A DNA stretch of 32,000 nucleotides, taken from contig NC_014833.1 in NCBI RefSeq assembly GCF_000179635.2, positions 840,001 to 872,000 of the forward strand, written 5' to 3'. The DNA comes from Ruminococcus albus 7 = DSM 20455 (GTDB lineage Bacteria > Bacillota > Clostridia > Oscillospirales > Ruminococcaceae). Of the stretch, positions 10,294-31,688 are shown piece by piece. Under the pieces are notes generated by a model. It had not been told where the DNA came from, made no database searches, and was given only the letters and a program-made list of their open reading frames with translations. The first letter of the stretch is position 1. Each line of letters starts with the position of its first letter. The position numbers and the translations under genes are program-made.

Positions 10294-11243
10294 ATCGAAA
10301 ATGATGATGCTCCTGTCATTCATTTTGCCGTTGCAGTAGACCCACATTCTTGATGTCGTGGTAGGCTTTCGGCCTTCCTCGTGAAGCACCTGAACGGTCG
10401 TTTCATCGGCATGGATCATCTGCCCTGCGATAAGCGTCTCATGCATTTTCTCCACAATCGGCAAACACCATTTTTCGGCAGCAGTGCCTACCCAATTAGA
10501 CATAGTCGCTTTGAGCAGAGGTATGTTTTTGGAATTAAAGTCCTTTTCCTGACGGTGCAGAGGTACTGACTTTGCATATTTTTCGTAGATGATATGAGCC
10601 AGAAGTTCGGGAGAGCAATAGCTTCCCGGGATCATAGCGTGAGGATATGGCGCACGGATGATATGACAAGGTTCGTCCCTTTCTTCGGGCTTTTCTCCGC
10701 ACTCGGGACACTTGTACTTATGTACTATATGCCTGCGGATATGATATTTTGGCGGCGTAAATATAAGTTCATCGTAAGCCTTTTCGGGAGTCAGTTCTTC
10801 CATTTCGGCGCCGCATATTTCGCATACCGGGTTGTCAATTTTGTGATGTTCTTCTTTTACAGGCAGATTGTTCATCCATTCATCGTGAGTGCGTTTTTTC
10901 TTGCGCTTGTGTTCGGGAACAGTAATTGTTTCGGCAGATTTAGCTGCGGATTTTTCTTCATTGTTTCCGAACATGGAAAGCTGAACACCGAACTCCTTTT
11001 CCATAACAACAGATGTCTGCTCTGTTTTTCTTCCGAATATCTGCTTTCTGAACCACGCTAACTGCTGATTGGCAAGTGCTAGTTCTTCCTTGAGAACAGC
11101 GTTTTCATTACGGAGCGATACAATTTCCGATGTCATATTTGGTTCGGACATAAAGCACCCCTCCGTTCGTTATGATACTTTAATGATACCACGAAAAGAG
11201 GGGCTTTTCAAGCACATATTCTGAATATTCGGTAAGTATTGCC

Positions 11244-14504: not shown

Positions 14505-15704
14505 GTGCTTATGAAACTGATAGAAAGAACCGAATATCTCAATAAGGTCATCAATGTGATCGGTACACCTGATATAAAGGTTATCACCGGTGTTCGACGC
14601 AGCGGCAAGTCTAAGCTGCTTGAAGCCTTTAAGAAGCATATTCTGGATAACTATCCTGATGCCAATATCATACACATCAATTTCAATCTGCCCGAATATG
14701 AGGAATATACAGAATATCGTCCTCTTTATGATCATATCAATTCCCTATACAGAGAAGGTGTAGAAAACTTTGTCCTGATAGATGAAATACAGATGTGCAA
14801 TAATTTTGAGAAAGCAATCAACGGTCTGCACGCTTCGGAGAAGTATGACATATATATTACCGGATCTAATGCGTTTCTGTTAAGTTCTGATCTTGCCACC
14901 CTGTTCACAGGAAGGACTTTCGAGATCAAAGTGTATCCCTTCTCCTTTGCCGAGTATGTAAGGTATTTTGGATATACCGATCTTTATACTGCCTTTGACA
15001 AATATGTTAACGAGGGCGGTATGGCAGGTTCCTATGTCTATAAAGATCAGGAAGCGAAGTACGACTATATCGAGGAAGTGTTCAATACACTTATCGTCCG
15101 TGATATCCGCAAAAAGTATAAGATACGAAATACAGCCCTTATGGACAGACTTGTAGAATTCCTGATGGATAATATATCGAACCTCACATCGGCCAGAACT
15201 ATTGCCGATACCTTTAACAGCCATAAGGATAAGATCAACCATAAGACCGTCAGCTCATATATGCAGTACCTCTGCAATGCATTTGCGTTTTATAAGGTGC
15301 GCAGGTATGACATCAAAGGGAAAAAGTATCTTGCGACGACCGAAAAATACTACCTCAGCGACCACTCCTTCCGCTATGCAAAGCTCGGCACGAAGAATAT
15401 GGACTACGGCAGAGTTCTAGAAAACATCGTAGCTATTGAGTTGCTTCGCCGGGGATACGAAGTGTATGTCGGTGTCCTTTATAAGAAAGAAGTGGACTTT
15501 GTAGCTATAAAACGTGATGAAAAGCTGTATATACAGGTCTCGGATAATATCACCGATGATAAGACATTCCAGCGTGAAGTATCACCGCTGCTGTCTATCA
15601 AGGACGCATATCCGAAAATGCTCATCGCAAGGACCCGGCATGATACTTATCAGTATGAAGGCATCAAGATCGTAGATTTTTCGAACTGGCTAACAAATAT
15701 TTAA
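14505..15704 (+). CDS. AAA+ ATPase of the AAA_14/DUF4143 family
   Basis: Walker A GVRRSGKS, Walker B FVLIDEIQ, and a C-terminal region typical of DUF4143 proteins. GTG at 14505 or ATG at 14511 follows RBS GAGGAG. An extended -10 TGGTATAAT lies at about 14479-14487. Confidence 0.85.
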   Translation: MLMKLIERTEYLNKVINVIGTPDIKVITGVRRSGKSKLLEAFKKHILDNYPDANIIHINFNLPEYEEYTEYRPLYDHINSLYREGVENFVLIDEIQMCNNFEKAINGLHASEKYDIYITGSNAFLLSSDLATLFTGRTFEIKVYPFSFAEYVRYFGYTDLYTAFDKYVNEGGMAGSYVYKDQEAKYDYIEEVFNTLIVRDIRKKYKIRNTALMDRLVEFLMDNISNLTSARTIADTFNSHKDKINHKTVSSYMQYLCNAFAFYKVRRYDIKGKKYLATTEKYYLSDHSFRYAKLGTKNMDYGRVLENIVAIELLRRGYEVYVGVLYKKEVDFVAIKRDEKLYIQVSDNITDDKTFQREVSPLLSIKDAYPKMLIARTRHDTYQYEGIKIVDFSNWLTNI

Positions 15705-15716
15705 GAAGGTAGTAAT

Positions 15717-16799
15717 ATGGATGTTATAGAAGAAATCAGAGCCCTTGCAGAAGAATATGAAGCATGCGGTGGAACTGAACGTAGTGACGGCAGCAAATCC
15801 AGGCTTTTTGATCCGCCTGCCACAATAGAACAGGTACGTGAATTTGAAAAAGAGATGCGCGTCACACTTCCCGAGGTATTCGTGCTTTATCTAACTGAGC
15901 TTGGCAACGGCGGGATAGGACCGAATTACGGCATATATTCGCTGGATAAGATGCGTGAGCGTAATCCTAATGCAGCAGCACGTGCAGAACTGCCTGTAAT
16001 GATCGGCGGGAGACTTCCCGAAGAAGCTTGGAAGACTTTTGCACGTGAAGCTGAGGCAGCAGATGATGAAGAGGATTTTGATAAAATTGAAGAACTTGAG
16101 CAGAGACTGATCGCAGGCGGTATCTTCATCAGTACACCGGGCTGCACGATGTATACTCTGCTGATGTGCAGAGGTGAAGCGGCAGGCGATGTTTGTACCA
16201 TAGATTTTGATTATCTTACATGGTATGATAAGCCCATCGAAGGCGGATACTCGTTTGAAGATTGGATGATCGAGGGAATGCACGATCATATTGCACGCCG
16301 AAAATACGGGATCGATATTGAAATGGTCACGCGATATAACCAAAGAGGTCTCGGAATGGCAGGTGAAAAACTTACGGATTCGCTGATCGATCTGCGAATC
16401 GCTCAACTAACGGAAGAAGGAGATACTGATGCTGTGAATCTTTCCCATGAGCTCCGCGATTTCTATGAGCGAGCATTTGGTAACGGGACGTTTCGAATGT
16501 GGATCGCAGTTCACCGTGGAGAGGTTATAGGCACTGTCGGGCTGACAATGCTTGAAAAGCCGCCATATTCCGCAAATCCAAACGGAAAGATCGGACTGAT
16601 CTCGAGTATGTATGTCAAACCTGAATTCCGAAGACGCGGCATGGCAAAGTGTATGCTTGGATATGTTATGCGCTGGGCAAAGCGAAACGGCATGGGCATT
16701 GTACAGGCAATGGCATCGGAGCAGGGCGTGAAGCTTTACGAATCCTGCGGATTTAGGCACAGTGAACGTTTTTTGCAGTATGATCTGAAAAATATGTGA
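15717..16799 (+). CDS. SMI1/KNR4 (SUKH-1)-like domain fused to a C-terminal GNAT N-acetyltransferase
   Basis: N-terminal ATIEQVREFEKEMRVTLPEVFVLYLTELGNGG matches the SMI1/KNR4 signature. C-terminal IGTVGL...ISSMYVKPEFRRRGMAKCMLGYVMRWAKRNGM...KLYESCGF matches GNAT motif A (RRRGxA). Confidence 0.8.
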   Translation: MDVIEEIRALAEEYEACGGTERSDGSKSRLFDPPATIEQVREFEKEMRVTLPEVFVLYLTELGNGGIGPNYGIYSLDKMRERNPNAAARAELPVMIGGRLPEEAWKTFAREAEAADDEEDFDKIEELEQRLIAGGIFISTPGCTMYTLLMCRGEAAGDVCTIDFDYLTWYDKPIEGGYSFEDWMIEGMHDHIARRKYGIDIEMVTRYNQRGLGMAGEKLTDSLIDLRIAQLTEEGDTDAVNLSHELRDFYERAFGNGTFRMWIAVHRGEVIGTVGLTMLEKPPYSANPNGKIGLISSMYVKPEFRRRGMAKCMLGYVMRWAKRNGMGIVQAMASEQGVKLYESCGFRHSERFLQYDLKNM

Positions 16800-17325: not shown

Positions 17326-17480
17326 ATCTATCGGACATAACAGCGTAATGCTTGTGATGTGAAATGTCCATCCCAATTATAATATGGCTATGACTGTTTC
17401 AGGTATATATGTCGTTTACTGTAAGTTACAGCCGTATCAGATTTAAGTTCTTTTATTTTCAGAAGGAGGGTCAAGAGATA

Positions 17481-20400
17481 ATGCACAAGAAAATGAAACG
17501 TATCGTTGCAGGGCTTGTGGCAATTACCGGTGCTTTATCGGCAACAGCCGCATCTGCACCTATGAGTGTGTTTGCAAAAAATGAACAGATAATTATTCAG
17601 TCTGACTTCAATGCAGGAATGGGTCTTCCCTGGCGCACATTCGAGAATGCACCGGCACGGCAGGACTTCGATATTTCAGACGGCACTTACAATATAACGA
17701 TACAGAATAACGATGGTCCCGAGTCAAGATGGGATCTTCAGTTCCTTTACAAAAATTTCTATATACAAAAAGGTCATACTTACAAGGTACACTGGAAGGT
17801 CAATTCTTCCAATGAGGGTGAGCTGTATACTAGGATCGGTAATTACGGCGGAACTGTTGAAGTTTGGCACAACAACTGCGGCAATGATGATTTCAATCAG
17901 ACGTGGGAATGCGTAAAGATCGCTAAAGGCGACAACACCTTCGATGCTGAGTTTACAGCTAAAGAAGATATGGATCGTGCTTGCTGGATATTTGATTACG
18001 GCGGACAGGGTCAGTATCAGCCGGTAGATTGCTTCCCCAACGGTACGGTCCTCAAATTCGACGATCTGTCTTTGATCGACACTACTTCCGGGGGCTGTAT
18101 AATCGATTTCATTCCTAACGATTGGGGCATTGTAAGACCCGAAAGCAACGTTCGTCTGAATCAGATCGGTTACTATCCTCAGCTGGAAAAGAGGGCTTCT
18201 TATGTTACCGATGCTGATATGCCACTGACTTTTGAGATACGTGACAGATCGGGCAACGTAAAGTACACAGGCAAGACGAAGGTATTCGGCAGCGATCCTG
18301 ATTCGGGTACAGGTAAGGATACAGTTGTTAATTCGGTCACAAGATACAAGGACTCGGGTGCCAACGTACATATCATTGATTTCTCTGATTTCAGAACTGT
18401 GGGCGAGTACACTATATTCGTTAAGGATACAGTCGGCGTAAGCGGCACTCAGGTGATGGGTTCTAAGAAAGTAAACGATACAAGGCTAAGCGGTGATAAG
18501 CTTTTATGGACAAATCCCGTTACTATGAAAACTTATACGATGAACGAGAGCAGTACATTCAGGATAGACAGACAGATCTATGATGATCAGCTGCTGAGGG
18601 ATTCCATGAACTACTTCTATCAGAACCGCTCAGGAGTCCCGATAAAGTCTGAGTACATCACATCAGGTGATAAGTCCGCACTGTCACACCTTAAATATGG
18701 TCATAACCCCGATATGGCTTATGTACAGAGCAAATGGGTAAAGACTTACGAAGATGACTTCTCTGATGGCGAGAAGGATAAGAAGATCGACGTTACAGGC
18801 GGATGGTACGCTGCAAGCGACCACGGTAAGTACGTTGTCGAAGGCGGTTTCTCCGTATGGACACTTCAGAACGCTTATGAGTTCTCCAAGAGGAGCGGCA
18901 ATACTCGCAAGTGGACTGACGGCACTATAGCTGTCCCCGAAAATAAGGATAATGCTCCCGATATACTGGATGAAGCAAGGGTAGAGCTGGAGTGGATGTT
19001 CAAAATGATAAATGAGGACGGCTTTGTATATCATTCAGTGCAGGACTATAAGTGGGCAGATATTCCGATCAGGTTAGGGCCCATATACTGTACGGACCCC
19101 CCAATGGAGTACACTTATCCTTACCGTATCGTCAGACCTCCTACGTATGCAGCCACATTCAACATGATCGCTTGTGCTGCACAGGCTTCACGTCTGTGGA
19201 AGGGCATAGATGATGACTTCGCAAAAGAGTGTCTGCAAAATGCACAGAACAGCTGGAAGGCTATCATGGCTAAGCAGTCCAATTGGAACGTTACAAGTGG
19301 CTATTACTATGATGATCCTTACTTTGCTCCCAGTGAATCCGGCGGAAACAACTTTTTCGGTGACACCTATGTAGTTGACGATGCTTACTGGGCAGCTTGT
19401 GAGCTTTATGCTACAACAGGGGACTCGGCTTACTATGGCTTCTTAAAAAACTATAAAAATTATAATGATCCGTCAGGTCAGGATAAGGCATTCAGCCTGA
19501 CTTCCTGCCTGAGCGGTGGTGAGAACAACGGTTCGTTCGGTTCCTTCAATTGGGGCAATACTGCGGGTCTGGGTACCCTTTCACTCTACCTGAGCGACAA
19601 GACATCTTCTGCTGACAGGAAGACTATTGTCAATTCTATCAAAAATATTGCTGACCAATATATTATTCAGATGAGTAAAGAAGGTATGGGCATACCTTAC
19701 AAGAGTGCGACTGTCGGGGGCTATATCGGTATCGGTGATGGAGATGTGTACACAGGTTATGAATACGGCTCCAACTCATTCGTTATCAACAACGCTATGG
19801 TCCTTGCATATGCTTATGATACTGATAACAGCAAATATATTTATCGGAACGGTGCTGCCGAAGCACTTGATTACCTCTTCGGACGCAACGGTCTGGGCTT
19901 CTCTTATGTATCAGGCTACGGCGATAAGGCAATGAGATCGCCACACCACAGATACTGGGCACAAAGTATTGATCCGTACTTCCCGGCGGCACCCTCAGGT
20001 GTTCTTGCAGGCGGTCCATGCTCAGATCTGTATCATGATAAATATCTTCGTGGTCTCGGCTATAAAAGAGGCACTTTAGCTGATCAGAAGTGCTATGTTG
20101 ACAGTGCAGAGGCATGGTCTGTAAATGATGTTTCCGGCAGCTGGAATGCTCCTCTGGTCTGGATGTCATCATTCATGAACGATCGTTTCGGCGGTCCGAA
20201 ACCAGTCCCCTATCCTACCAACATTAAGGTCGATTACAGTGAGGAGTATCATCAGGTAAGATTTACCTGGAACAAGGTGGAAAACGCTGACAGATACGGC
20301 ATAGCAGTTTATCTGGCAGGCAAGTGGAGAGTTCAGAAACAGGATATCACAGGCACTACCTACACTTCTCCCAAAAATCTGACTCCCGGCGTAACTTATA

Positions 20401-20483
20401 AGGTAGCGATTGCCGCAAGAGTGAACGGCACATGGGATACTGAAAATGCTATCAAACGTGCTTGTACTGTTACTATAAAGTGA
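17481..20483 (+). CDS. Multidomain glycoside hydrolase family 9 protein (signal peptide, CBM4/9-like module, Ig-like CelD_N module, GH9 domain, conserved C-terminal module)
   Basis: ATG at 17481 follows RBS AGGAGGG. Signal peptide MHKKMKRIVAGLVAITGALSATAASA. GH9 signature 1 SYVSGYGDKAMRSPHHR is intact. GGWYAASDHGKY and YVDSAEAWSVNDVSGSWNA are GH9 motifs with substitutions. C-terminus is YHQVRFTWNKVENADRYGIAVYLAGKWRVQ... Confidence 0.9.
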   Translation: MHKKMKRIVAGLVAITGALSATAASAPMSVFAKNEQIIIQSDFNAGMGLPWRTFENAPARQDFDISDGTYNITIQNNDGPESRWDLQFLYKNFYIQKGHTYKVHWKVNSSNEGELYTRIGNYGGTVEVWHNNCGNDDFNQTWECVKIAKGDNTFDAEFTAKEDMDRACWIFDYGGQGQYQPVDCFPNGTVLKFDDLSLIDTTSGGCIIDFIPNDWGIVRPESNVRLNQIGYYPQLEKRASYVTDADMPLTFEIRDRSGNVKYTGKTKVFGSDPDSGTGKDTVVNSVTRYKDSGANVHIIDFSDFRTVGEYTIFVKDTVGVSGTQVMGSKKVNDTRLSGDKLLWTNPVTMKTYTMNESSTFRIDRQIYDDQLLRDSMNYFYQNRSGVPIKSEYITSGDKSALSHLKYGHNPDMAYVQSKWVKTYEDDFSDGEKDKKIDVTGGWYAASDHGKYVVEGGFSVWTLQNAYEFSKRSGNTRKWTDGTIAVPENKDNAPDILDEARVELEWMFKMINEDGFVYHSVQDYKWADIPIRLGPIYCTDPPMEYTYPYRIVRPPTYAATFNMIACAAQASRLWKGIDDDFAKECLQNAQNSWKAIMAKQSNWNVTSGYYYDDPYFAPSESGGNNFFGDTYVVDDAYWAACELYATTGDSAYYGFLKNYKNYNDPSGQDKAFSLTSCLSGGENNGSFGSFNWGNTAGLGTLSLYLSDKTSSADRKTIVNSIKNIADQYIIQMSKEGMGIPYKSATVGGYIGIGDGDVYTGYEYGSNSFVINNAMVLAYAYDTDNSKYIYRNGAAEALDYLFGRNGLGFSYVSGYGDKAMRSPHHRYWAQSIDPYFPAAPSGVLAGGPCSDLYHDKYLRGLGYKRGTLADQKCYVDSAEAWSVNDVSGSWNAPLVWMSSFMNDRFGGPKPVPYPTNIKVDYSEEYHQVRFTWNKVENADRYGIAVYLAGKWRVQKQDITGTTYTSPKNLTPGVTYKVAIAARVNGTWDTENAIKRACTVTIK

Positions 20484-22011: not shown

Positions 22012-23169
22012 TCATACTTCAGGAAGAGTATCTATCATTCTCAGAATATATTTTCTGACAGCCACAGCATCTGCATCGGTTATGCCATCGCCACTGCCCG
22101 AACAATCAGCGTTTATTTTTCCCTGCTCAGTCAGCTTATACTTTGAAGGTGCTGACAATGTCTGCTTGATAAGTACGAAATCAGAAATATCCACTTTTCC
22201 GTCGCAGTTTGCATCACCATAAACTGCCTTTGGATTATCCGGAATATTGCTCTCTGTTATGGGAGCCATGCTCGGTTCGGTATCACCCCACCAGTCCCAA
22301 CGGTCAGCGGTACGGTATTTCTCCATATTTCCGCCTGCCGAAGTCCAGGTAAACACATTGTCGTAAAGATGCCCTTCGTTATAATAAAACTGTGCCATCG
22401 AACAGATCTCATCAGCATAGGTCTTGTATGCACCATCGTCCTCAGCCATATAGCACCAGCCTGTATTAAAGCCCTTAAGGCTGTTCCTTATGACCTGATA
22501 GCCGTGCATTCCCTCTTCATTAATACAGATCTCAGCAAAGTGGAGTATCTTTCTGATACCCATGTGATTTGAGATTATACAATCATAGAAATTGGATTCC
22601 GTGAAAGAATACTGAAACATCTCAGGGACGTTGTCCTCGGGCATGAACTTGGGATTGCAGTCTGCAAAAGCAGTAACAGCGGTCTGAAGAGTACCATATG
22701 CATGGGCAGAGTTAACACCCCAGCCGTCTTCATAGGCTGTTTCATGGTCTGAGCCTATCTTGCCTTCACCCAGAGTAGATTCACGGGTACCAAGTCCAAG
22801 AAACAAAGCATACACCTTTTCACGTTCCGGTTGGCCAAGACGAGTGGAGATAAGATCCCAGTGCTCATCTATCTCTTTATAGAGAGCGTACTTTACCTCC
22901 TGCACTGTCATATTATGGTTGATAGCGCGTATCTCAGCCGTAGAAGCGTTTGCAGGAGTATTTCTCTCCCCAAAGCCAAGGGGATTGCCAACTCCTTCCT
23001 TCTGTATATCACGGGAAGTATCGTGCAGAGGGTCGCAGGTATTTCCGGCACAATACCATTCGTCTGCCGAAGCAACGATAGAAGTATCCATATCACCTGC
23101 CGATATCGACATTGATGATACGATCATTGCAGCCGCGGTAATGACACCGAAAAATCGTCTTTTATTCAT
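22012..23169 (-). CDS. Secreted dockerin-bearing protein with a possible lysozyme-like/lytic-transglycosylase-like domain
   Basis: The likely start is ATG at 23169 after RBS GAGGTG, with signal peptide MNKRRFFGVITAAAMIVSSMSISA. The C-terminal type I dockerin duplicate is GDANCDGKVDISDFVLIKQ ... DCSGSGDGITDADAVAVRKYIL. The central motifs TRES, AYGTLQ and GFNTGW resemble SLT motifs ES / GLMQ / AYNxG. Confidence 0.75.
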   Translation of the reverse strand: MNKRRFFGVITAAAMIVSSMSISAGDMDTSIVASADEWYCAGNTCDPLHDTSRDIQKEGVGNPLGFGERNTPANASTAEIRAINHNMTVQEVKYALYKEIDEHWDLISTRLGQPEREKVYALFLGLGTRESTLGEGKIGSDHETAYEDGWGVNSAHAYGTLQTAVTAFADCNPKFMPEDNVPEMFQYSFTESNFYDCIISNHMGIRKILHFAEICINEEGMHGYQVIRNSLKGFNTGWCYMAEDDGAYKTYADEICSMAQFYYNEGHLYDNVFTWTSAGGNMEKYRTADRWDWWGDTEPSMAPITESNIPDNPKAVYGDANCDGKVDISDFVLIKQTLSAPSKYKLTEQGKINADCSGSGDGITDADAVAVRKYILRMIDTLPEV

Positions 23170-23303
23170 AAATAACACCTCATGTTTTGAGTCGATTTAC
23201 TGACACGGACAGACCTCTGTCAAAGTGAAATTGAGGTCTGTCCAGATTACCGTTACAAATTATATCACATTTCCATGTAAATTTCAATATGATATTATAA
23301 AAA

Positions 23304-23456: not shown

Positions 23457-24512
23457 TCACTCTACAGTAAAAGTCACAGCGTTTTTGATAGCATTTGCAG
23501 TATCCCATTTGCCATTAACTTTGGCTGCGATAGCTACGTTGTAGGTCTTGCCCGGGGTGAGGTTCTTGGGAGTAGTATATTCTGTATCGGTGATACTCGC
23601 CTCCTGAACTCTCCACTTGCCTGCCAGATAAACAGCTACGCCGTAACTGTCAGCACCATTTACAGCGTCCCAAGTAAATCTCATCTGCTTGTACTGGCTG
23701 TCATATTCCATCTGTATGTTCTTAACGGAATCATCTTTATGATGTCCGCAGTCACAGATGCCTCGTGGATACATATTCATAGAAACTTCAACCTGACCAT
23801 CGCTCTCCCAACCTTCAACGCTGAAAGAAATATCGTACAGGTTCCCCACCTTCATACCCAGGTCCTCCCAAGCCTTGAAGTGTTTGGAAACGCTGATAGT
23901 ACCCTTGGTTCTCGTGTTCTGACGTATGCTTATATACTGTGTGAAATACCTGTCGCCTTCGATGGTATAGGAATTTTTGTTTATAGTATATACCTTGTAC
24001 TCACTTCCGTCAATATTAACGGAACCCTTGTACTGTGCAGAAGCAGACTGCGCAGGTGACCAGTTCTTCCAGTCTTCAATGATGTAGTACTCTACCAGAG
24101 GATTCTGCGCCCAGCCGTAGATACCGATCCTGGCGTTACCGGATGAACCTGCATACCAGATGCAGTCGTAGTCACAGTAGAAATTACCATAGTCCTTGTA
24201 AGTCTTGGGATTATTCAGACCCCAGCGAAGACCACGATTAGTAATGAAGTTTCCTCTCGTGTTGTTAGGACCACACTTCCACTGTGCGCGGAAACCACCG
24301 TCATTTTCGTGCAGTGTCATTGTAGAAGAATTATTGGTATCTGCCTGCCAGATCTCGTGGTGGTAGTCGTTGTACCAGCCGACTTCCTGTGTGTGTGACG
24401 GGCTCGTAGTGAGCGTCTTTGCAGCAGATGCAGTAACTGATGTTATAATAGGTGAAACCATCAGCACACCGGCAACAAGAGCGCCTAAAACACGTTTTGA
24501 AACATTTTTCAT
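23457..24512 (-). CDS. Glycoside hydrolase family 11 endo-1,4-beta-xylanase with conserved C-terminal module
   Basis: Signal peptide MKNVSKRVLGALVAGVLMVSPIITSVTASA after RBS GAGGAG. GH11 hallmarks YGWAQNPLVEYYIIEDW (nucleophile Glu) and SVEGWESDG (acid/base Glu). C-terminus is YKQMRFTWDAVNGADSYGVAVYLAGKWRVQ... Confidence 0.92.
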   Translation of the reverse strand: MKNVSKRVLGALVAGVLMVSPIITSVTASAAKTLTTSPSHTQEVGWYNDYHHEIWQADTNNSSTMTLHENDGGFRAQWKCGPNNTRGNFITNRGLRWGLNNPKTYKDYGNFYCDYDCIWYAGSSGNARIGIYGWAQNPLVEYYIIEDWKNWSPAQSASAQYKGSVNIDGSEYKVYTINKNSYTIEGDRYFTQYISIRQNTRTKGTISVSKHFKAWEDLGMKVGNLYDISFSVEGWESDGQVEVSMNMYPRGICDCGHHKDDSVKNIQMEYDSQYKQMRFTWDAVNGADSYGVAVYLAGKWRVQEASITDTEYTTPKNLTPGKTYNVAIAAKVNGKWDTANAIKNAVTFTVE

Positions 24513-25110
24513 AAGCTATTTCTCCTCGCTATCAAAAAGATTAAAACTATATATAGATACTTAAATGATACAACGCATTGACTTTTTCGGTTCAATATTA
24601 TTTGATTATATTTTATAATTTTTTAGTAATTGGTTCTAATTATATTTTGCTTATTATCATTTTAGCAATACCATAAATTGCTATTTATTGCCTTTTAGTC
24701 ATCAACTATTTACTTTTTAAATTATAATTACCACAAATCTTTTAATCATTATAAGATAAGCATTCAACACATAAAACCCCGGAATTGCGCGGCTTCGCAG
24801 GATTGATAGCATAGAAAATGTATGTTCATAAATAAGGATCCGTCTGACATTAATACAATTTTTTTGTCATAAATTCAACATTTTTCATGCTAATATTGAT
24901 AGGCTTTAAATCGTACATCATACTCAAAGTATCAGTTAATTATCCGTTGTTTGTAATTTCACCGGTTTCTTACTCCCTATGAGTATTACAACAGCCTTTT
25001 TGACGACAGAAACAGTCTTTCCAAGACCGATACAGATGCGACATTTATGTGTATAAATGATGTTTGTATTGATAGGAATGATTTGAAATTTAAGTAGTTT
25101 AATATTACAG

Positions 25111-25154
25111 AAAATAACCGCCCCATTCCGTTTATAACAGTGGAATGGGGCGGT
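25111..25154 (-). terminator. Rho-independent terminator of the four-gene operon
   Basis: A perfect 13-bp GC-rich stem ACCGCCCCATTCC / GGAATGGGGCGGT followed on the minus strand by TATTTT. It lies 30 bp after the stop at 25185. Confidence 0.75.
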
Positions 25155-25184: not shown

Positions 25185-25886
25185 TCATCTTGTGATATTA
25201 GCAATAGCGGCGGATATAACATCTTCTACGCCGCAGACTTTATCAATTTTATCCTTGTCGGGAGCATTCCTTAGTTCTGCGATACCTGCTCTCCACAAAA
25301 CCAGAGTATTTACATTCAGTGAATCTATCCGCTGTGACATGGCACTGTTGCGGGTGTACATATCAGATATCATCATAATACCTTGTGATGCTATGTTTGC
25401 CGAGATTACAAGGTCGTTTATTTTTTTATCTGCAAGGATCTGGTAGTATTTCCAGTCGGTATCTTTATCTTTGTTTTTCATATGTTCACTCAATGCGGCT
25501 GATGCTTCATTAAGCTCCTGTATGCAGCACTCCAGCACTTGTTTCATGGTGTCAAGCAGCATATTCTCTTTGTATAGTCCTATGTATATTTCCTGAAAGC
25601 TATCGGATATCCTCTGGGCTTCTTTGTCAGCTTTTTCAGCATTGTCAATGAGTCTTGCGTAGCTTATAGTTCCCACAAATCCCTTGTATTTTGCCAGACC
25701 GTTTATCTTTAGCTGGTCTGAAGCAAGGGTCAGGACATTTATAGCTTTGTCAGGCATCCTATCCTGCTGTATTCTGAATAACATATCTGATGTATCAGCT
25801 ATTCTCTTCTGAACATCTCCTGCATATGAGGGGAGAAGTTCAAAGGTCATCATATCGGGGGTATATTTCTTGGTACTATTCAGCAT
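25185..25886 (-). CDS. Short TelA-like (toxic anion resistance/YaaN-KlaB family-like) helical protein; gene 4 of the operon
   Basis: 233 aa, all-helical in character. ADKKINDLVISANIASQGIMMISDMYTRNSAMSQRIDSLNVNTLVLWRAGIAEL parallels the conserved TelA core (..DKR.HDL..S.Q...Q...I.....N.....KI.S......PLWK.Q..), recalled from memory. Its start overlaps the upstream stop (ATGCTGA). The ORF call is solid; the family call is moderate. Confidence 0.65.
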   Translation of the reverse strand: MLNSTKKYTPDMMTFELLPSYAGDVQKRIADTSDMLFRIQQDRMPDKAINVLTLASDQLKINGLAKYKGFVGTISYARLIDNAEKADKEAQRISDSFQEIYIGLYKENMLLDTMKQVLECCIQELNEASAALSEHMKNKDKDTDWKYYQILADKKINDLVISANIASQGIMMISDMYTRNSAMSQRIDSLNVNTLVLWRAGIAELRNAPDKDKIDKVCGVEDVISAAIANITR

Positions 25887-26770
25887 GACCTGTTCACCTT
25901 AGCAAGCTTGATATACTTATCAAGATCTATCTTCTTAAAAAAATTATAACTGTCACAATTTATATCCTGACCAAATATACCCATCTGAACTGGTGATGAA
26001 ATGACTATATCAGTATCGGGTATATTGAAGATATCACGGAACTGGTCTTCCGTAAGAGGCTGACCATAATAGGGATACCAGTTCTTTTCGTGGAATGACA
26101 TGGACTCCATCACCCTCAGCACGACACGTCGTAAAAACATAACCGAGCACATGGGGTAGAAGCATTTTTTCATATTAATAGGTTCCGACGGGCTTTTCAG
26201 CCTTATCTCGGAGTTGAACACCTCGTCATTGCTGTAGCATGAGCTGAACACTTTAAGGTCAACACCTATGCCGTATTCTTCAAGCAGTTTTATCAGACTG
26301 AGAGTCAGCGCGCCGCGGTTGGTGACTGCCTGCTCTAAGGTGTGAATTGAATATGCCAGATTGAACCATATAGTAACGAATTTTTTCTCTCTTGCTCTTG
26401 TGAGCCTGTACATTGTCTTCGGAGTACCTGCCACGTACGCGGGAATATTTGGGTGAGAGCCTGCCATTGCCTTTTCCTGCCTGCGTCTGTAAGTTCTTAT
26501 CGGCATAGTCTTTTCAAATTCCTTCAGCATTTCCAGTGTAATGTCATAATTACCCGTATATCCGCCGATAAGATAATCTACAGCATTATCAAAGGTATCC
26601 TCGGGAAAATCCGGACGTCTGATGATACTGTGCTGTTTGAGAAATATTTTGTCGTTTACTTTAGGTTTGCTGAGTATATACATCTGCATATCACTCAGAC
26701 TGTTGAACGCCGCATTGTATACAGTCATTTTTTTGTATTGGTATACTTTGAGGTTCATAAATTCTCTCAT
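25880..26770 (-). CDS. Unknown protein, partner immediately downstream of the AAA_5 NTPase; gene 3 of the operon
   Basis: 296 aa. ATGA start/stop overlap with the NTPase gene. No motif I can assign. The strand-helix pattern KKFVTIWFNLAYSIH...RGALTLSLIKLLEEYGIGVDLKVF could be a degenerate vWA/Rossmann-like core without a DxSxS MIDAS. Confidence 0.75.
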   Translation of the reverse strand: MREFMNLKVYQYKKMTVYNAAFNSLSDMQMYILSKPKVNDKIFLKQHSIIRRPDFPEDTFDNAVDYLIGGYTGNYDITLEMLKEFEKTMPIRTYRRRQEKAMAGSHPNIPAYVAGTPKTMYRLTRAREKKFVTIWFNLAYSIHTLEQAVTNRGALTLSLIKLLEEYGIGVDLKVFSSCYSNDEVFNSEIRLKSPSEPINMKKCFYPMCSVMFLRRVVLRVMESMSFHEKNWYPYYGQPLTEDQFRDIFNIPDTDIVISSPVQMGIFGQDINCDSYNFFKKIDLDKYIKLAKVNRSC

Positions 26771-28911
26771 CGTCTTGTTTCTCCGTTTCGTATAGCGTTA
26801 ACTATATTGCTGAACACGCTGAATATCCCGACACTTTTTCTTTCACGACCGTCGTAGAACTTTGCCATTTCTCTCTGTAGAAATGCAAGATATTCGCTGT
26901 CCTTGGTCTCAACGAATTCATATCTGACGATCGCCTCGACATCGTAACTCTGGTGATCAAGGTACTTCTTTATGCTGGTTGCATCACGGGTGGTGAATAT
27001 ACCCGGAGCTGCTGTCTGATTTTCTTTGCTCCATGCAGTGGTGGCATTGCGGAAGACCTCAGCGAATTCAAACCACTGAGGATAATTACAAAGTATGTTC
27101 TCTTCAAGTCTGTTATCGTAATCAACGTATATCGCTGTGAATCTCTGCATGAGAGATTCCTCTATCTTCTCACGGGTGCTGTAATTCCTGTCAGCGCCGT
27201 CACCTGCGGTGTTGCCTGCTGCTATGATACGGAAATTCGGGTGGCGCATTACTCGCTCGCCGTTAGGGAAGCAGTAGCTTGCATTTTTGGAATTGGACAT
27301 AAAGCTGTTGAGTTTTACTGCTGCCCTGATATTGCCATTATCAAATTCATCGCAGAAAACTATACCGCCGTATTTGTATGCTCGGTAGAATGCAGGATAG
27401 TTGTATCCGCCGTCCGCTGTCTGGAATCCCAGCAGGTCATATTCCTCGTTTATGTAGCCGATATCCAGATATTCCAGTCCCAACAGCTTGGCTATCTGCC
27501 CTACAAGAAAAGTTTTTCCGCAGCCGGATGGGCCTATCATATATGGGTTTGAATCTTCGATTACAGCGGTGATTATATCATCGAAATGCTCATGATAAAG
27601 AGTATTGTTTTCATCGATATACTTCTGCTTTTTCTCCATGAGTTTTGCGAACCTGTCTTTGAAGGGATAGGATTCATCAAAGAAGAAATTAGGTGTCATA
27701 TCAGCAGGCTCGGTGCATCTCTGGGCATTTATCTGAACTATGGTTGGGTGCACTCCTGCCGCCACCTGTATTGGTGCGGCAGCTGCTTCAGTTTTTTCGG
27801 CGTCGAAATTTTTGCTGAACTCATCAACGCGTATTATTCTGTTCACCAGATCACTGCTCTTGTTTACCTCTGATATGATATTTTTCAGTTCGCCGTTGTT
27901 AAGCATTGACGAGGCTCTGTCAATAGCTTTGTTTGCCTCCGTGTTTATGCGGAAAAGCTCTGCGGCTGTGTTGTCCTTTATGCCTGAAGCCAACAGTTTA
28001 AGCTCTCTTATCTTACTGTCCGCAGAATCTATGACATCTCTGATCAGCTTATCCTTTTCAAACACTATACTGTCATGTTCTTCGTTCAGAAAAGCATCAA
28101 AAGATTCTTTCAACTTGAATTCCGCATTCTTTGCTTCTCTTGTAAGTTTTTCCGTCTCACTAAGTGTGAGATCCTTGATAGTCTTTTCATTCTGCTCAAC
28201 AAATCTTTTGAAGCTGTCGAGGCGATCTTCTGTAAGGTCGAGAGTGTGCTTTGCGTTCTCAAGGTTTTCCTTGCTGTTTTTCAGCAACATCTCAGACCTT
28301 GCTATCCTTTCTTCACTGATATCGTATATTCCGCAAGCCATTCGCGCATAGCTGAGAAGTTTTTCACATTCGATCTCTTTGTCATGAGCACTGCATATCT
28401 TGATAGCACCGCTTATAAGCGATGAGGCAAAGCTTTTCTCATTGTTGTGGTACTGTCTGAGCTCACAGCTGAAAGTATTGATATAATAGATGTTTTTTTC
28501 TGCTGTTGGTATATCTGCAATGGTGCACATGGTATCGATGTAGATCTGCTTGTCACTGAAACATAAATACATCTCTTTAGTGAACAATCCTGAATGATAG
28601 ATGCCGTCCTTTTCAAATATTTTCAAAAATACTGCATTTGCAAACCTGAAATCTTTGGTTGCTTTTCCGAGAGGAAGTACGGTGCGGTAGATATCCTCTG
28701 CATCTTTCATTATTTCTATAGGCGATTTTTCACTTCGGGAAGTTATAATGCTGTTGACCAGCTTTGAAAGTGTTTCTTCCGAGCCGAATCTGTTTTTATC
28801 GGGCTCCCGCTTTATCTCACTGAGGTATATACTCAGCGGAACATATTTATCGTCCTTTTTTAACGCTGCCTTGACCGCCTGCAATATTGCGTCTATCCTG
28901 TTTTTTGTCAT
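26767..28911 (-). CDS. Coiled-coil-containing AAA_5 (MoxR/McrB-like) NTPase; gene 2 of the operon
   Basis: 714 aa. Walker A GPSGCGKT (27511-27534), Walker B IVFCDEFD (27340-27363), sensor region IIAAGNTAGDGAD (27190-27228) and LMQRF. The N-terminal ~190-aa domain is unassigned. A long E/K/L-rich heptad-like segment covers about aa 195-345 (27879-28329). Confidence 0.85.
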   Translation of the reverse strand: MTKNRIDAILQAVKAALKKDDKYVPLSIYLSEIKREPDKNRFGSEETLSKLVNSIITSRSEKSPIEIMKDAEDIYRTVLPLGKATKDFRFANAVFLKIFEKDGIYHSGLFTKEMYLCFSDKQIYIDTMCTIADIPTAEKNIYYINTFSCELRQYHNNEKSFASSLISGAIKICSAHDKEIECEKLLSYARMACGIYDISEERIARSEMLLKNSKENLENAKHTLDLTEDRLDSFKRFVEQNEKTIKDLTLSETEKLTREAKNAEFKLKESFDAFLNEEHDSIVFEKDKLIRDVIDSADSKIRELKLLASGIKDNTAAELFRINTEANKAIDRASSMLNNGELKNIISEVNKSSDLVNRIIRVDEFSKNFDAEKTEAAAAPIQVAAGVHPTIVQINAQRCTEPADMTPNFFFDESYPFKDRFAKLMEKKQKYIDENNTLYHEHFDDIITAVIEDSNPYMIGPSGCGKTFLVGQIAKLLGLEYLDIGYINEEYDLLGFQTADGGYNYPAFYRAYKYGGIVFCDEFDNGNIRAAVKLNSFMSNSKNASYCFPNGERVMRHPNFRIIAAGNTAGDGADRNYSTREKIEESLMQRFTAIYVDYDNRLEENILCNYPQWFEFAEVFRNATTAWSKENQTAAPGIFTTRDATSIKKYLDHQSYDVEAIVRYEFVETKDSEYLAFLQREMAKFYDGRERKSVGIFSVFSNIVNAIRNGETRR

Positions 28912-28921
28912 ATCCTTCCAC

Positions 28922-30037
28922 CTATTCGTTATCTTTATGTAAGTATCTGTCTATTATTTCAACACCGGGTATACCAAAAAGATCATCCTTGATTTTTTTG
29001 ATCTCTCCATCGTTTATATGTCGGTAATAATATCCTTCCTGTGAGCTGTCCAGGCTCTTTATGATTCTTGTGCAGCACAGTTTTGATTGTACAAGCAGCC
29101 TGGTTTTTTCTCTGAATATTTCATGAACTACCGATATCTCACTTTTTCTGCCGTTGCAGAGTTCTTCCTCATATATCTGAGTTATCATTTCGCTGTCATT
29201 GCAGTAAATTGTTTCTTTATCCGTCATGAAGATCTTTTCGCCCCAAGGCAATAAAGCTCCCTGAGCATAATTGCCGCCGATCTCGCATATCAGCTTCACT
29301 TCCTCAGACATTTCAGTTTTTTCAAGCTCGGGAGAGATCTCCTCACAGAATATCACTTGTCCGTCTTCGATGATCATACATCTGAGGCTGTTCTGTAATA
29401 GATCGTATATATATTCATGTCGAAGCTCCCTATCGGTAAAACTTTGGGTTATCACTTCGGTTTTTGAATGGGCATACCTGAGCGTGATCTGTGCTGTGTG
29501 AGTGCCATTGAATAGATTTCCCAGAGTATAAACATATTCGTTACCCTGTGAAGTTATGCTGCATGGCAGTTGTTTATTTATTCCGTTGACAGTACAGGAT
29601 ATCATATATCTGTTTCTGTTCCCTTTGATGTTTGAAAGCCTAAATGTTGCTTCTGCATCACTGTATATCTTTGAAAGAAAGTATTCGATGAAATTTTTGG
29701 AAAACATACCTGTGCCGAACGTCAGTACCTTTTCTTCATGCTTACTGCACTCAGCAATAAAGTTGAAACGCGTGGGGAAACTAAGTTTTTTACGTTTCTC
29801 AATTATCTCGGAAGTATAGTCGTCGAAACAGCTTTCGGGGTAATTGAGATACAATCGGTCTGCTGTTTTTGCCAGCATGGAGAAGTAGTCGTCATATTCA
29901 CATAGATTGATATACTTATTTCCGTTATATATCACTATCAGTGCCTGTGTGTTATCAGGCATGGTGTAATATCTTATCAGATCTGCTTTTTCTATCTGAG
30001 ATATTTCCAACTGAGTTCTGCTCATGAATGGTGTCAT
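28922..30037 (-). CDS. Unknown protein; gene 1 of the operon
   Basis: 371 aa. The ATG is 10 nt after RBS AGGAG (30048-30052). There is a 10-bp gap containing GGTGGAAGGA before the next gene. No signal peptide, TM segment or motif I recognise. Confidence 0.75.
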   Translation of the reverse strand: MTPFMSRTQLEISQIEKADLIRYYTMPDNTQALIVIYNGNKYINLCEYDDYFSMLAKTADRLYLNYPESCFDDYTSEIIEKRKKLSFPTRFNFIAECSKHEEKVLTFGTGMFSKNFIEYFLSKIYSDAEATFRLSNIKGNRNRYMISCTVNGINKQLPCSITSQGNEYVYTLGNLFNGTHTAQITLRYAHSKTEVITQSFTDRELRHEYIYDLLQNSLRCMIIEDGQVIFCEEISPELEKTEMSEEVKLICEIGGNYAQGALLPWGEKIFMTDKETIYCNDSEMITQIYEEELCNGRKSEISVVHEIFREKTRLLVQSKLCCTRIIKSLDSSQEGYYYRHINDGEIKKIKDDLFGIPGVEIIDRYLHKDNE

Positions 30038-30189: not shown

Positions 30190-30362
30190 ATATTATATCA
30201 TATGTATCAATAAAAGTAAAGCAACTGCAACGTGCTTGAATGTTAGCTTTAGTTGCGAAGCCTCACACGACTAAAGTCGCGTGCTTCCAATAGTGTCCTA
30301 TAGGACACGCCCACTTTAGGAGGGCGGACTACGTTTCTACCATACAGCCTGAACTCAGAAAA
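30190..30362 (-). ncRNA. Candidate omega-RNA (reRNA) scaffold/right end of the TnpB element (boundaries approximate)
   Basis: It lies immediately 3' of the tnpB stop. Dense hairpins on the minus strand: CGCCC-n10-GGGCG, GTGTCC-TATA-GGACAC, GAAGC[CACGCGAC-TTTA-GTCGTGTG]AGGCTTC and GCAAC-n21-GTTGC. The complementary ACTTTAGT / ACTAAAG segments suggest a pseudoknot. Confidence 0.45.
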
Positions 30363-31688
30363 TTATGCTGTTGGAGCAATAAATTCCGCATTCAGGTTAA
30401 CTAAGGTAGAGAACGTGCAGGTGCTTCTCTTACTGCATTGAGGGACTTTAGCCTCAATGAGCAACCTTGAATTCTCATCCAAGGATTTTAATATTTCACG
30501 TATGAAGTATCTTGCCCCTATATTATACGAAGCAGATAGATCACAGTTGTAGGTCTTGCCATTTTGAAATTTGCATAGCTCATAGGTATTGAAACCACCG
30601 AATTTACCACGAAGTACAAAACCACTGCCATCGTAGGCAAGGCGTGACGTATTCCATGCACAGATATGGCTTACTCTCATACCTAGTCTGTGAGCTTTAT
30701 TCGTTACAATAGACTGAACTTCCTGACTGCGCCACAGCTTGAGTTTCTGCTTTTTAGAACCGCGGACCTTACCGTTCTTGTCTAAATGCTCAAATACAAT
30801 AACATCTGCATTATAAAGAACAGCTATATCTACGATGCAGGCAGCAGTTTTAGTGGCAATGTCGTGATTGATTCCTTTGGCTTTTGCCCAAAGCCTTGGT
30901 GTTTTATAGTTACCATGCTGCTGAGCTTTTTTTATACGGTTAACACAATGCATAAGATGGTCTGTTTCTTTGGTAAGCTTATAAAAATGCCTTCCAAGAA
31001 TAGTGCCATCTGAACGCATTACGGAAATCGTAGCTGCGGTGTTTATTCCAAGATCTACAGCAACAATGGTCTGTTCATACACAGATATATCTGCAAGTTT
31101 GACCTTTTCCTCAAACGGAAAGTCCAAAAACCACTCCTTGCCTCGTTTTTGAAGTGTTGGAGCGCATTGCTTGCGAAAATTGCAATGTCTGTATATATAA
31201 TCCATATCAGACTTTTTAAAGTTTATCGTTATCCAGTCCCATGTATTACGGATGTAGACTTTGATCTGGGCAGTATAATCACCGGTCTGATTGTACATTC
31301 CTGTACGATACATTGACGGAAATGTATATCCTGCTTTTGGATACGATGGTTCTCTGCCTACAGGATCTTTTATCCAATTGGCGAGATTGCTTTTGTAAGA
31401 TGATACCTTGCCTATAGCTTCGTTAATAGCACCACGGCGCAGATAGCTTGGCATCTTATAGAATTTTGTATCAAAATCATAAATTGGATCGGGATTATCT
31501 TTTGTAGAATGGATCAGTGTTTCAATATATGTGAGTTTACTCACCCCTTTGAATGAAACAATGTTATCCCATTTATCAAGACATACTTTGATAAGGTAAT
31601 CTACAGCATGTCTGTATACGATAACGGTATCTTTAAAGATGTTGTTGTAATGCTTGATCTTAACGCTATAAGTCGTATATATCTGCAT
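30363..31688 (-). CDS. tnpB: IS200/IS605-family TnpB-like RNA-guided endonuclease (OrfB), with no TnpA nearby
   Basis: 441 aa. The RuvC triad context is IVAVDLGIN (D), DVIVFEHLD (E) and YNCDLSASYNIGARY (D, matching the hADxNAAxNI motif). RBS GGAGGGAG upstream. The usual CxxC...CxxC zinc finger between E and the last D appears degenerate. Confidence 0.85.
   Translation of the reverse strand: MQIYTTYSVKIKHYNNIFKDTVIVYRHAVDYLIKVCLDKWDNIVSFKGVSKLTYIETLIHSTKDNPDPIYDFDTKFYKMPSYLRRGAINEAIGKVSSYKSNLANWIKDPVGREPSYPKAGYTFPSMYRTGMYNQTGDYTAQIKVYIRNTWDWITINFKKSDMDYIYRHCNFRKQCAPTLQKRGKEWFLDFPFEEKVKLADISVYEQTIVAVDLGINTAATISVMRSDGTILGRHFYKLTKETDHLMHCVNRIKKAQQHGNYKTPRLWAKAKGINHDIATKTAACIVDIAVLYNADVIVFEHLDKNGKVRGSKKQKLKLWRSQEVQSIVTNKAHRLGMRVSHICAWNTSRLAYDGSGFVLRGKFGGFNTYELCKFQNGKTYNCDLSASYNIGARYFIREILKSLDENSRLLIEAKVPQCSKRSTCTFSTLVNLNAEFIAPTA

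Follow-up and report, generated by a model that had tools for sequence, protein, structure and literature searches.

The third gene of a four-gene operon of Ruminococcus albus 7 encodes a 296-amino acid (aa) protein of the sequence family DUF7192. This protein is probably the dedicated adaptor of the AAA+ ATPase encoded just upstream: a reduced, von Willebrand-A (vWA)-like domain that lacks the MIDAS (a metal ion-dependent site of adhesion) and that would be coupled to the motor by a finger placed in the pore. The operon lies on the minus strand of a 32,000-nucleotide (nt) stretch of contig NC_014833.1 (positions 840,001 to 872,000), referred to here as the window. MoxR/CobS-type AAA+ motors are thought to act through vWA adaptors whose MIDAS binds the target, and DUF7192 would represent a different form of such an adaptor.

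DUF7192 and its linkage to a MoxR-class ATPase gene

An earlier note on this DNA, made from the sequence alone, had described an open reading frame (ORF) of 296 aa that overlaps the stop codon of an AAA_5 NTPase gene, in the position of an adaptor partner. Both the ORF and the ATGA overlap are read directly in the sequence. The protein was regarded in that note as unclassifiable, which does not hold: it matched the Pfam model of DUF7192 (PF23822) with 75.2 bits (gathering cut-off 27, E 6.9e-21) and phrog_1909 (3e-23), and its NCBI record, WP_013497489.1, already carries the name "DUF7192 family protein". PF23822 was present in 24 of 24 close homologues and was matched by all 87 members of a diverse family set. 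A hidden Markov model (HMM) search of 1.84 billion representative proteins (E≤1e-3) placed 4,253 clusters at 50% identity in the family. NCBIfam gave no match for the 296-aa protein, PDB sequence searches with the protein and with family profiles found nothing, and literature searches for DUF7192 and PF23822 returned no papers. A motif scan agreed with the note that the protein has neither DxSxS nor PD-(D/E)xK: its whole length holds no D-x-[ST]-x-[ST], nor a D followed by (D/E)-x-K after 8-30 residues. An intact DxSxS at the relevant position was found in none of the 87 diverse members.

The four cassette proteins are exact matches of R. albus 7 records ADU21305 to ADU21308. The DUF7192 ATG overlaps the TGA stop of the ATPase gene by 4 nt within ...agacgATGAgagaa..., the TelA-like gene 4 begins with an ATG in a 7-nt overlap (ATGCTGA) with the DUF7192 gene's end, and 10 nt separate gene 1 from the ATPase gene. 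Because of these tight junctions, the promoter-like sites upstream of gene 1 and the terminator after gene 4, we conclude that the four minus-strand genes form one operon. The number of promoter-like sites in the region did not exceed the shuffled expectation, and the two sites listed in Table 1 are candidates only.

That the upstream gene encodes an AAA_5 NTPase was confirmed by Pfam (1.6e-9, aa 458-578). Walker A (GPSGCGKT) and Walker B (CDEF) are both intact in the ATPase, which also has the sensor-1 Asn and conserved arginines. Its nearest solved relatives are CbbQ (7e-6) and NorQ (9e-4), both of the MoxR class, and it matched phrog_249, a CobS-like family labelled "porphyrin biosynthesis", at 5e-32. 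The gene stands where, according to the earlier note, McrC or a vWA protein would be expected, and the partner might then be a McrC-like nuclease serving a McrB-like NTPase in a type IV restriction system. McrB and McrC share with the present pair the order of an AAA+ NTPase gene followed by its partner gene, and the long, coiled-coil-like extension of the ATPase recalls CoCoNuT-type McrBC relatives. DUF7192, unlike McrC, has no PD-(D/E)xK nuclease domain, and neither its sequence nor its fold matched a nuclease. The ATPase stands nearer to CbbQ and NorQ, and PADLOC-DB v2 gave no defence-system match for DUF7192, the gene 1 product or the TelA-like protein; the ATPase itself had only a weak match, to mad8 (E 0.003). 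The McrC proposal was rejected, and we regard it as barely credible.

Linkage of the two genes was strict. DUF7192 relatives with 35-98% identity were analyzed in 62 loci from species-representative genomes of gut and rumen Clostridia (Ruminococcus, Oscillospiraceae, Lachnospiraceae, Acetatifactor, Lachnoclostridium and others), and an AAA+ module was encoded immediately upstream on the same strand in 62/62. With iterated profile HMMs, a TelA-like homologue was detected downstream on the same strand in 61 loci (median gap 36 nt) and a gene-1 homologue upstream in 58; every locus that lacked one or the other was cut by a contig end. The N-terminal extension of the ATPase was detected in 58/62, and the four-gene operon persisted down to 34% identity. 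Among 61 ATPase/DUF7192 junctions, 17 were overlaps of 4 nt, 17 were overlaps of 1 nt and 10 were gaps of 1-2 nt, i.e., an overlap or a gap of ≤2 nt in 44, with a bias toward short gaps, as the start nearest the upstream stop was taken in each case. Together with the gene order in 62/62 genomes, these junctions go beyond chance. The genes flanking the cassette vary between species, and therefore the four genes travel as a unit. This conserved linkage strongly reinforces the earlier argument from position, by which the gene stands where the partner of an AAA_5 NTPase would.

Some of these loci showed peculiarities. The most diverged cassette (34% identity; L012, 2432-9360) has a full-length TelA gene (390 aa) before the four genes and a gene for an HD-domain protein (253 aa) after them, and both products may be accessory components of the system. 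Two Lachnospiraceae loci (L053, ~5796-6000; L064, ~5880-6000) carry a spacer of 67-145 nt in place of the usual ATPase/DUF7192 overlap, with tandem direct repeats of units such as CCGGAAGAACATGCCGGTAACGGAG...AGAGTGATCCG. Beside the cassette of a Ruminococcus metagenome-assembled genome (L001, 9734-14988), the opposite strand encodes a PP2C phosphatase and two Ser/Thr kinases, one of them with LRR_5 repeats. This arrangement resembles the TerY-phosphatase-kinase triads known from Ter systems; of the neighbourhoods inspected only one showed it, and it may be a coincidence.

Related ATPases were found in 427 phage records. Six unrelated phage lineages were inspected (Staphylococcus Kayvirus A3R, Clostridium phage CS266P3, Listeria LP-064, Mycobacterium MsGreen, Sinorhizobium phiM5 and Acinetobacter Mithridates), and in all six the DUF7192 gene was adjacent to, or one gene away from, the gene of the related ATPase. 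The DUF7192 gene lies upstream of the ATPase gene in one lineage, and a gene intervenes in two. A linkage that has survived such rearrangement points to a functional complex rather than to operon inertia. The phage ATPases have a total length of 338-429 aa, with no counterpart of the 417-aa N-terminal extension, yet they are paired with DUF7192, so that the AAA+ module and DUF7192 together make up the minimal unit. Transcriptome papers on Kayvirus and on Listeria phages do not discuss the two genes. Hundreds of phage ATPases of the DUF7192-partnered clade are annotated "porphyrin biosynthesis" or "Cob5" (e.g., NC_005880.2, NC_041862.1, PP101685.1), and Kayvirus record MF398190.1 labels the ATPase "structural protein".

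The AAA+ modules of twelve ATPases were aligned, nine of them partnered with DUF7192 and three being plasmid MoxR ATPases (two with identified CobT/vWA partners). The nine clustered together and apart from the three: identity between the groups was 20-32%, as compared with 27-55% among phages and between phage and bacterial cassettes, and 51-71% among three bacterial copies. The region of the helix-2 insert has 21 residues and a shared motif in seven of the nine DUF7192-partnered ATPases and 24-30 residues in the vWA-partnered set, the length ranges of the two groups overlapping slightly. The separate grouping and the helix-2-insert differences thus indicate that motor and partner diverged together.

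The plasmid-borne relatives pair with true vWA proteins. One cluster holds MoxR, DUF3150 and a 637-aa vWA protein beside RecT and an exonuclease; the second plasmid partner is a 640-aa protein with CobT and CobT_C domains. The former, a conserved module on Citrobacter plasmid pCAV1857-208 (L009, 226-8230), reads SSB, RecT, lambda-type exonuclease, a hypothetical protein, the MoxR/CobS-like ATPase, DUF3150 and the vWA protein. The motor-adaptor pair thereby sits inside a recombination cluster, with DUF3150 between motor and adaptor.

Predicted fold, finger and decayed MIDAS of DUF7192

AlphaFold model 1, based on 23 close homologues, had a predicted local distance difference test (pLDDT) score of 78, with residues 92-126 below 50, and gave weak fold matches only. 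Model 2, based on the 87 diverse members, was confident throughout (pLDDT 94.4; predicted template modelling score 0.90). The strand VTIWFNLAYSIH, singled out in the earlier note as the best candidate for a core strand, corresponds to aa 132-143 and coincides with the first core strand (residues 130-137) of both models. A vWA domain is a three-layer alpha/beta fold whose six sheet strands are ordered 3-2-1-4-5-6. Taken by secondary-structure order, model 2 fits such a domain: beta1, alpha1, a beta2/beta3 hairpin, alpha2, alpha3, and short beta4 and beta5 strands (Table 1).

When the PDB was searched with model 2 by Foldseek, the only four matches at E≤1e-3 were the NorD vWA chains of NorQ-NorD complexes solved by cryo-electron microscopy (cryo-EM) (9qh6, 9qh8, 9qhd and 9qhe; E 4.5e-5 to 5.9e-4, probability 1.00). 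These were followed, with low probability, by classical vWA domains (TRAP, vWF-A1, factor B, collagen VI), and the many KRAS matches, at a root mean square deviation (rmsd) of ~16 Å, were noise. A search of BFVD with model 1 returned phage DUF7192 proteins as the top 12 matches, followed by a second tier of phage proteins named "von Willebrand factor", "CobT-like" and "cobalamin biosynthesis" (E from 2.5e-3, probability up to 0.95). PDB and BFVD, which are independent of each other, thus agree on one kind of domain, namely the adaptor of the vWA type that serves MoxR/CobS motors.

The anatomy of two such adaptors has been solved; CbbO and the MIDAS domain of Rea1 are counted among the AAA+-partnered vWA adaptors as well. 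A finger (residues 403-448) tipped by a short helix stands out from the vWA domain of NorD and reaches into the NorQ pore, where it touches the helix-2 inserts; its deletion abolishes target remodelling and leaves ATPase stimulation intact, and the last two residues of NorD are essential for NorQ binding (PMC13036017). The same authors also call McrBC a finger-in-pore assembly (PMC13036017). NorD MIDAS mutants still co-purify with NorQ (PMC9976466), so the MIDAS serves target binding and not motor binding. In the C-terminal domain of CobT, beta0 is followed by two tandem helices, then by a shaft (Q373-R413) and finally by the vWA core. Unless nucleotide is bound, the shaft is disordered; it ends in a short hydrophobic helix, and the MIDAS (D422, S424, S426, N518, D546) lies at the end of beta1, opposite the shaft tip, on the CobN-binding side (doi 10.64898/2026.07.21.739949). 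The pore-inserting element directly precedes beta1 in both NorD and CobT (PMC13036017; doi 10.64898/2026.07.21.739949).

DUF7192 is predicted to have the corresponding element, a sheet-stabilised finger with a helical tip, at the same place. This finger is the most conserved block of the family: G104 is found in 87/87 members, P117 in 83/87 and M120 in 85/87. Its low confidence in model 1 may be due to the shallow alignment, or may fit a protruding, mobile element. NorD is the best fold match, and the DUF7192 gene, like that of NorD, adjoins a gene for a MoxR-class ATPase. DUF7192 differs from NorD in that it has no MIDAS, no long N-terminal domain, no disordered linker and no nitric oxide reductase context, and its finger has ~28 residues against 46 in NorD. 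The elements of CobT_C follow one another in the order of the DUF7192 model, one for one. PHROG makes the ATPase CobS-like, the next-best fold matches in BFVD come from phage CobT-like proteins, and sister plasmid ATPases pair with CobT or CobT_C proteins. CobT differs in having an N-terminal, M48C-like domain, a MIDAS and the CobN effector, and in its size (~640 aa against ~290 aa).

MoxR-vWA pairs are also two-gene units of motor and adaptor on mobile elements or in variable regions, with an ATPase of a related clade. Examples are the MoxR-DUF3150-vWA set of pCAV1857-208, phage chaperones (PMC7824862) and vWA-MoxR conflict systems (PMC7159879). Those pairs keep a recognisable vWA domain with MIDAS, whereas here DUF7192 takes its place, and in bacteria a TelA-like protein and a long N-terminal extension of the ATPase go with it.

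A MIDAS comprises DxSxS after beta1 and, further on, a Thr (or Asn) and an Asp. Where beta1 ends, the consensus of the 87 members is [N/S/D]-x-[S/A/G]-Y-[S/P/N], a decayed DxSxS. The R. albus 7 protein has N137-L-A-Y-S141 there, the only relaxed MIDAS-like string in the whole protein, and a non-significant hhalign alignment puts it on the D-x-S-G-S of CobT_C. Several polar and other residues are near-invariant: K192 (84/87) at the end of beta3; R214 (86/87), R215 (85/87) and E222 (86/87) in alpha3; and Y235 (83/87) and G236 (87/87) at beta4. Judged by secondary-structure order only, K192 and Y235-G236 would stand at the topological positions of the remaining MIDAS residues; hhalign alignments, again not significant, place them on the conserved L-K and D-G-x-P of CobT_C. 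The conserved polar residues may replace the MIDAS.

Weighing the adaptor model

Several results weigh against a vWA origin, or against docking in the manner of NorD. The Pfam vWA, VWA_2 and CobT_C models matched neither the window protein nor any of the 87 members even at E≤10. The hhalign comparison of the family profile with single vWA domains was not significant, and that with a 17-sequence CobT_C profile was not significant either (probability 0.2%, E 0.27), with reversed-profile controls scoring only slightly below it. The NorD matches have TM-scores of only 0.24-0.28 and an rmsd of 7-10 Å, so that global superposition on NorD is poor, and in the C-terminal half of model 2 the beta4 to beta6 strands are only vestigial, a further difference from NorD. 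The C-terminus is poorly conserved among the 87 members; since the last two residues are essential in NorD, docking of DUF7192 may differ.

Owing to the low TM-scores, the missing vWA matches and hhalign scores near those of decoys, homology of DUF7192 to vWA is only probable. Since sequence-model match and MIDAS both fail, the protein is filed as a member of DUF7192, functionally a new variant on the theme of the MoxR/CobS adaptor that would work in the manner of NorD, CobT_C and CbbO, and not as a vWA protein. The earlier proposal of a highly diverged or novel adaptor or effector is thereby upheld in part: the structure search that it recommended supports a diverged vWA domain, with NorD chains as the only strong matches at low TM-scores, while the family proved to be catalogued already and sequence profiles do not support the vWA homology.

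These same results could mean that DUF7192 is an obligate partner of the ATPase with an unrelated three-layer alpha/beta fold, the pairing having arisen independently. Such a partner might engage the motor otherwise, as a regulator on the N-terminal extension or as a remodelled substrate. The non-significant sequence profiles, the low TM-scores to NorD, the weak matches to generic Rossmann-like proteins such as KRAS, and the lack of conservation in DUF7192 of the C-terminus, which is critical in NorD, are all in its favour. However, PDB and BFVD single out AAA+-partnered vWA domains and not random alpha/beta folds, the element order is co-linear with CobT_C, vestiges of the motif (N-x-[S/A]-x-S, L-K, Y-G-x-P) stand at the positions of MIDAS residues, and the sister ATPases pair with true CobT/vWA proteins. 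The phage ATPases, moreover, have no N-terminal extension and still keep DUF7192. We consider an unrelated fold rather unlikely.

A second alternative concerns the conserved residues. K192, R214, R215, E222 and Y235 could form a catalytic or ligand site (e.g., for a nucleotide or a phospho-ligand), and DUF7192 would then be an effector enzyme regulated by the ATPase. Conservation of these polar residues in 83-86 of 87 members is more than a simple docking surface usually needs, and the protein is net basic (+8). Against this, no enzyme family was matched by sequence or fold, the most conserved block is the finger and not the polar patch, and where MoxR/CobS systems have been solved, the vWA partner serves as an adaptor whose MIDAS face binds the target. 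An enzymatic role therefore appears improbable to us.

The CobS-like match of the ATPase raises the possibility of a CobS-CobT cobaltochelatase, with the pair as a motor in the synthesis of vitamin B12. Besides the phrog_249 label, there is the published interpretation that viral cobST pairs hijack the CobN of the host (PMC8651126). DUF7192, however, lacks both the MIDAS and the CobT N-terminal domain, the elements that contact CobN in CobSTN; PF06213, the model of the latter domain, matched neither the window protein nor the 87 members. The operon contains no cobN or other cobalamin gene, its further products being the TelA-like protein and an unassigned 371-aa protein, and the DUF7192-partnered ATPases group apart from the CobT-partnered ones. 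A true CobT was rejected on the lack of PF06213, MIDAS and cobN. Because the partner has no CobN-contacting elements and the operon no cobalamin gene, "porphyrin biosynthesis" does not fit, and a cobaltochelatase is very improbable. For the phage ATPases, too, the label is probably wrong, since their DUF7192 partner is without MIDAS and CobT N-terminal domain.

The adaptor model that we favour can be put as follows, by analogy with the cryo-EM structures of NorQD and CobST. One copy of DUF7192 would dock on the concave face of the ATPase hexamer, and its conserved finger (aa 97-124) would enter the central channel and be gripped by the helix-2 inserts. ATP-driven movements of the subunits would then rotate or pull the adaptor, which would pass the force to a target held on the opposite face. 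At this target face, the patch formed by K192, R214, R215, E222 and Y235-G236 would stand in for the lost MIDAS. DUF7192 would thus be a MIDAS-less, "CobT_C-only" adaptor, with the pair fixed in a translationally coupled four-gene operon in gut Clostridia and present alone, as a minimal pair, in phages. Of all this, the analysis shows the family membership, the strict linkage, the joint divergence of motor and partner, the lost MIDAS and the order of the secondary-structure elements, while descent from vWA, docking with the finger in the pore and the task of the patch are inferred.

The operon in its surroundings and what the pair may mean

The features of the operon, of the DUF7192 protein and of the rest of the window are compiled in Table 1.

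Table 1. Position of the operon, its protein elements and other features in the window. Residue numbers of the fold elements refer to DUF7192 model 2.
Feature	Residues (aa)	Position in window	Strand	Basis
Gene 1, acidic soluble protein	371 in total	28922-30037	minus	ORF
Gene 2, AAA_5 ATPase	714 in total	26767-28911	minus	ORF, Pfam AAA_5
ATPase N-terminal extension, helix-rich, partly coiled-coil-like	~417 in total	27661-28911	minus	
ATPase CobS/MoxR-type AAA+ module		26770-27660	minus	Pfam AAA_5, phrog_249
ATPase Walker A		27511-27534	minus	alignment motifs
ATPase helix-2 insert region		27367-27429	minus	alignment motifs
ATPase Walker B		27343-27360	minus	alignment motifs
Gene 3, DUF7192 protein, ATG start	296 in total	25880-26770	minus	Pfam PF23822, phrog_1909
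DUF7192 predicted finger/shaft, directly before beta1	92-126	26393-26497	minus	conservation and model
DUF7192 beta1 and decayed MIDAS, ...VTIWFN137-L-A139-Y-S141	130-141	26348-26383	minus	family consensus
DUF7192 region of conserved polar residues	beta2-beta3 hairpin (168-192), alpha3, Y235-G236	26063-26269	minus	
Gene 4, TelA-like protein	233 in total	25185-25886	minus	Pfam TelA
Candidate promoter, TTTACT-17-TG-TATAAT, upstream of gene 1		30192-30220	minus	consensus scan
Second promoter candidate		30137-30109	minus	consensus scan
Intrinsic terminator, 16-bp G+C-rich hairpin then TATTTTCTGT		25107-25154	minus	~30 nt past TelA-like stop
DUF7192 N-terminal strands	6-12, 15-22			model 2
DUF7192 N-terminal helix	25-33			model 2
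DUF7192 tandem helices	60-69, 75-86			model 2
DUF7192 finger hairpin: strand, helix (PNIPAYVAG), strand	97-101, 109-113, 120-124			model 2
DUF7192 beta1	130-137			model 2
DUF7192 alpha1	146-165			model 2
DUF7192 long beta2/beta3 hairpin	168-192			model 2
DUF7192 core helices	200-208, 210-222			model 2
DUF7192 vestigial beta4	~235-238			model 2
DUF7192 helix	241-248			model 2
DUF7192 beta5	255-257			model 2
DUF7192 C-terminal helix	270-281			model 2
IS1595-family transposase gene, first copy		970-1845	plus	
IS1595-family transposase gene, second copy		9385-10260	plus	
IS66-family fragment		10231-11151	minus	
AAA_14/DUF4143 ATPase gene		14505-15704		
SUKH-1/GNAT fusion		15717-16799	plus	
Secreted protein	1024 in total	17409-20483	plus	
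Protein with dockerin-like repeat	388 in total	22012-23178		
Secreted protein	351 in total	23457-24512	minus	
TnpB/Cas12f-like ORF	441 in total	30363-31688	minus	

The TelA-like protein scored 33.3 bits against the Pfam model TelA (cut-off 30). No family match was found for the gene 1 product in Pfam, PADLOC, NCBIfam and PDB sequence searches, and the N-terminal extension of the ATPase has no Pfam match and, by BLASTP, no detectable similarity to full-length TelA. Searches with diverged copies (Pfam), BLASTP and PDB profile searches likewise gave only the TelA assignment for the TelA-like protein and nothing for gene 1 and the extension. Hydrophobic segments of membrane-spanning length are absent from all four operon proteins. 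A published view places TelA in sub-membrane assemblies for stress or conflict, to which vWA proteins also belong (PMC7824862); no mechanism was found in the TelA literature. Because of this published view and of the strict TelA-like linkage in bacteria, a function in envelope stress or conflict is our best guess, held with little confidence.

The DNA around the operon is accessory chromosomal DNA rich in insertion sequences (IS), with two IS1595 copies, an IS66 fragment and a TnpB-like gene; it also holds genes of the BspA-type LRR and SUKH/GNAT kinds, and glycoside hydrolases. A prophage origin of the cassette was rejected on these IS-rich chromosomal surroundings and on the differing chromosomal contexts of the operon elsewhere. 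The two IS1595-family transposase genes are ~8.4 kb apart, have near-identical Pfam scores and could bracket a composite element; the IS66-family fragment overlaps the end of the second copy. The TnpB/Cas12f-like ORF lies directly upstream of the operon, and its OrfB_IS605 and TNB-domain matches are weak and below the Pfam cut-offs.

Two secreted proteins encoded in the window share a nearly identical C-terminal module of ~80 residues, with the pattern ...FTW..V..AD.YG.AVYLAGKWRVQ...TPKNLTPG.TY.VAIAA.VNGKWDT.NAIK..., which has the look of a cell-surface or carbohydrate-binding module common to both. A dockerin-like repeat (GDANCDGKVDISD) closes the 388-aa protein. In one ORF, a SUKH-1 (SMI1/KNR4) domain of the immunity type at the N-terminus is joined to a GNAT acetyltransferase at the C-terminus, and the AAA_14/DUF4143 ATPase gene adjoins this ORF.

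The sequence family itself is already catalogued. As far as the searchable literature shows, what is new is the obligate pairing with a distinct AAA+ clade, the anatomy of finger and decayed MIDAS, and the TelA-linked four-gene operon. With these findings a widespread DUF gains a testable function, linked to a phage ATPase that is labelled "porphyrin biosynthesis". More speculatively, and with considerable doubt, the four-gene operon might be an ATP-driven system for remodelling that has gone unrecognised in Clostridia of gut and rumen, with a two-gene version in many phages; in it, a metal-less vWA relic would grip a new class of target through a Lys/Arg/Glu/Tyr patch, and the system would act in envelope stress or phage-host conflict and not in the insertion of a metal cofactor. 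If this is true, the "porphyrin biosynthesis / CobS" label on hundreds of phage ATPases would be wrong. In the adaptor model itself, a family of ~4,250 clusters would keep the motor-engaging finger without the MIDAS, so that motor coupling would be separable from target recognition, and MoxR/CobS-type machines would have a new mode of recognizing their targets.

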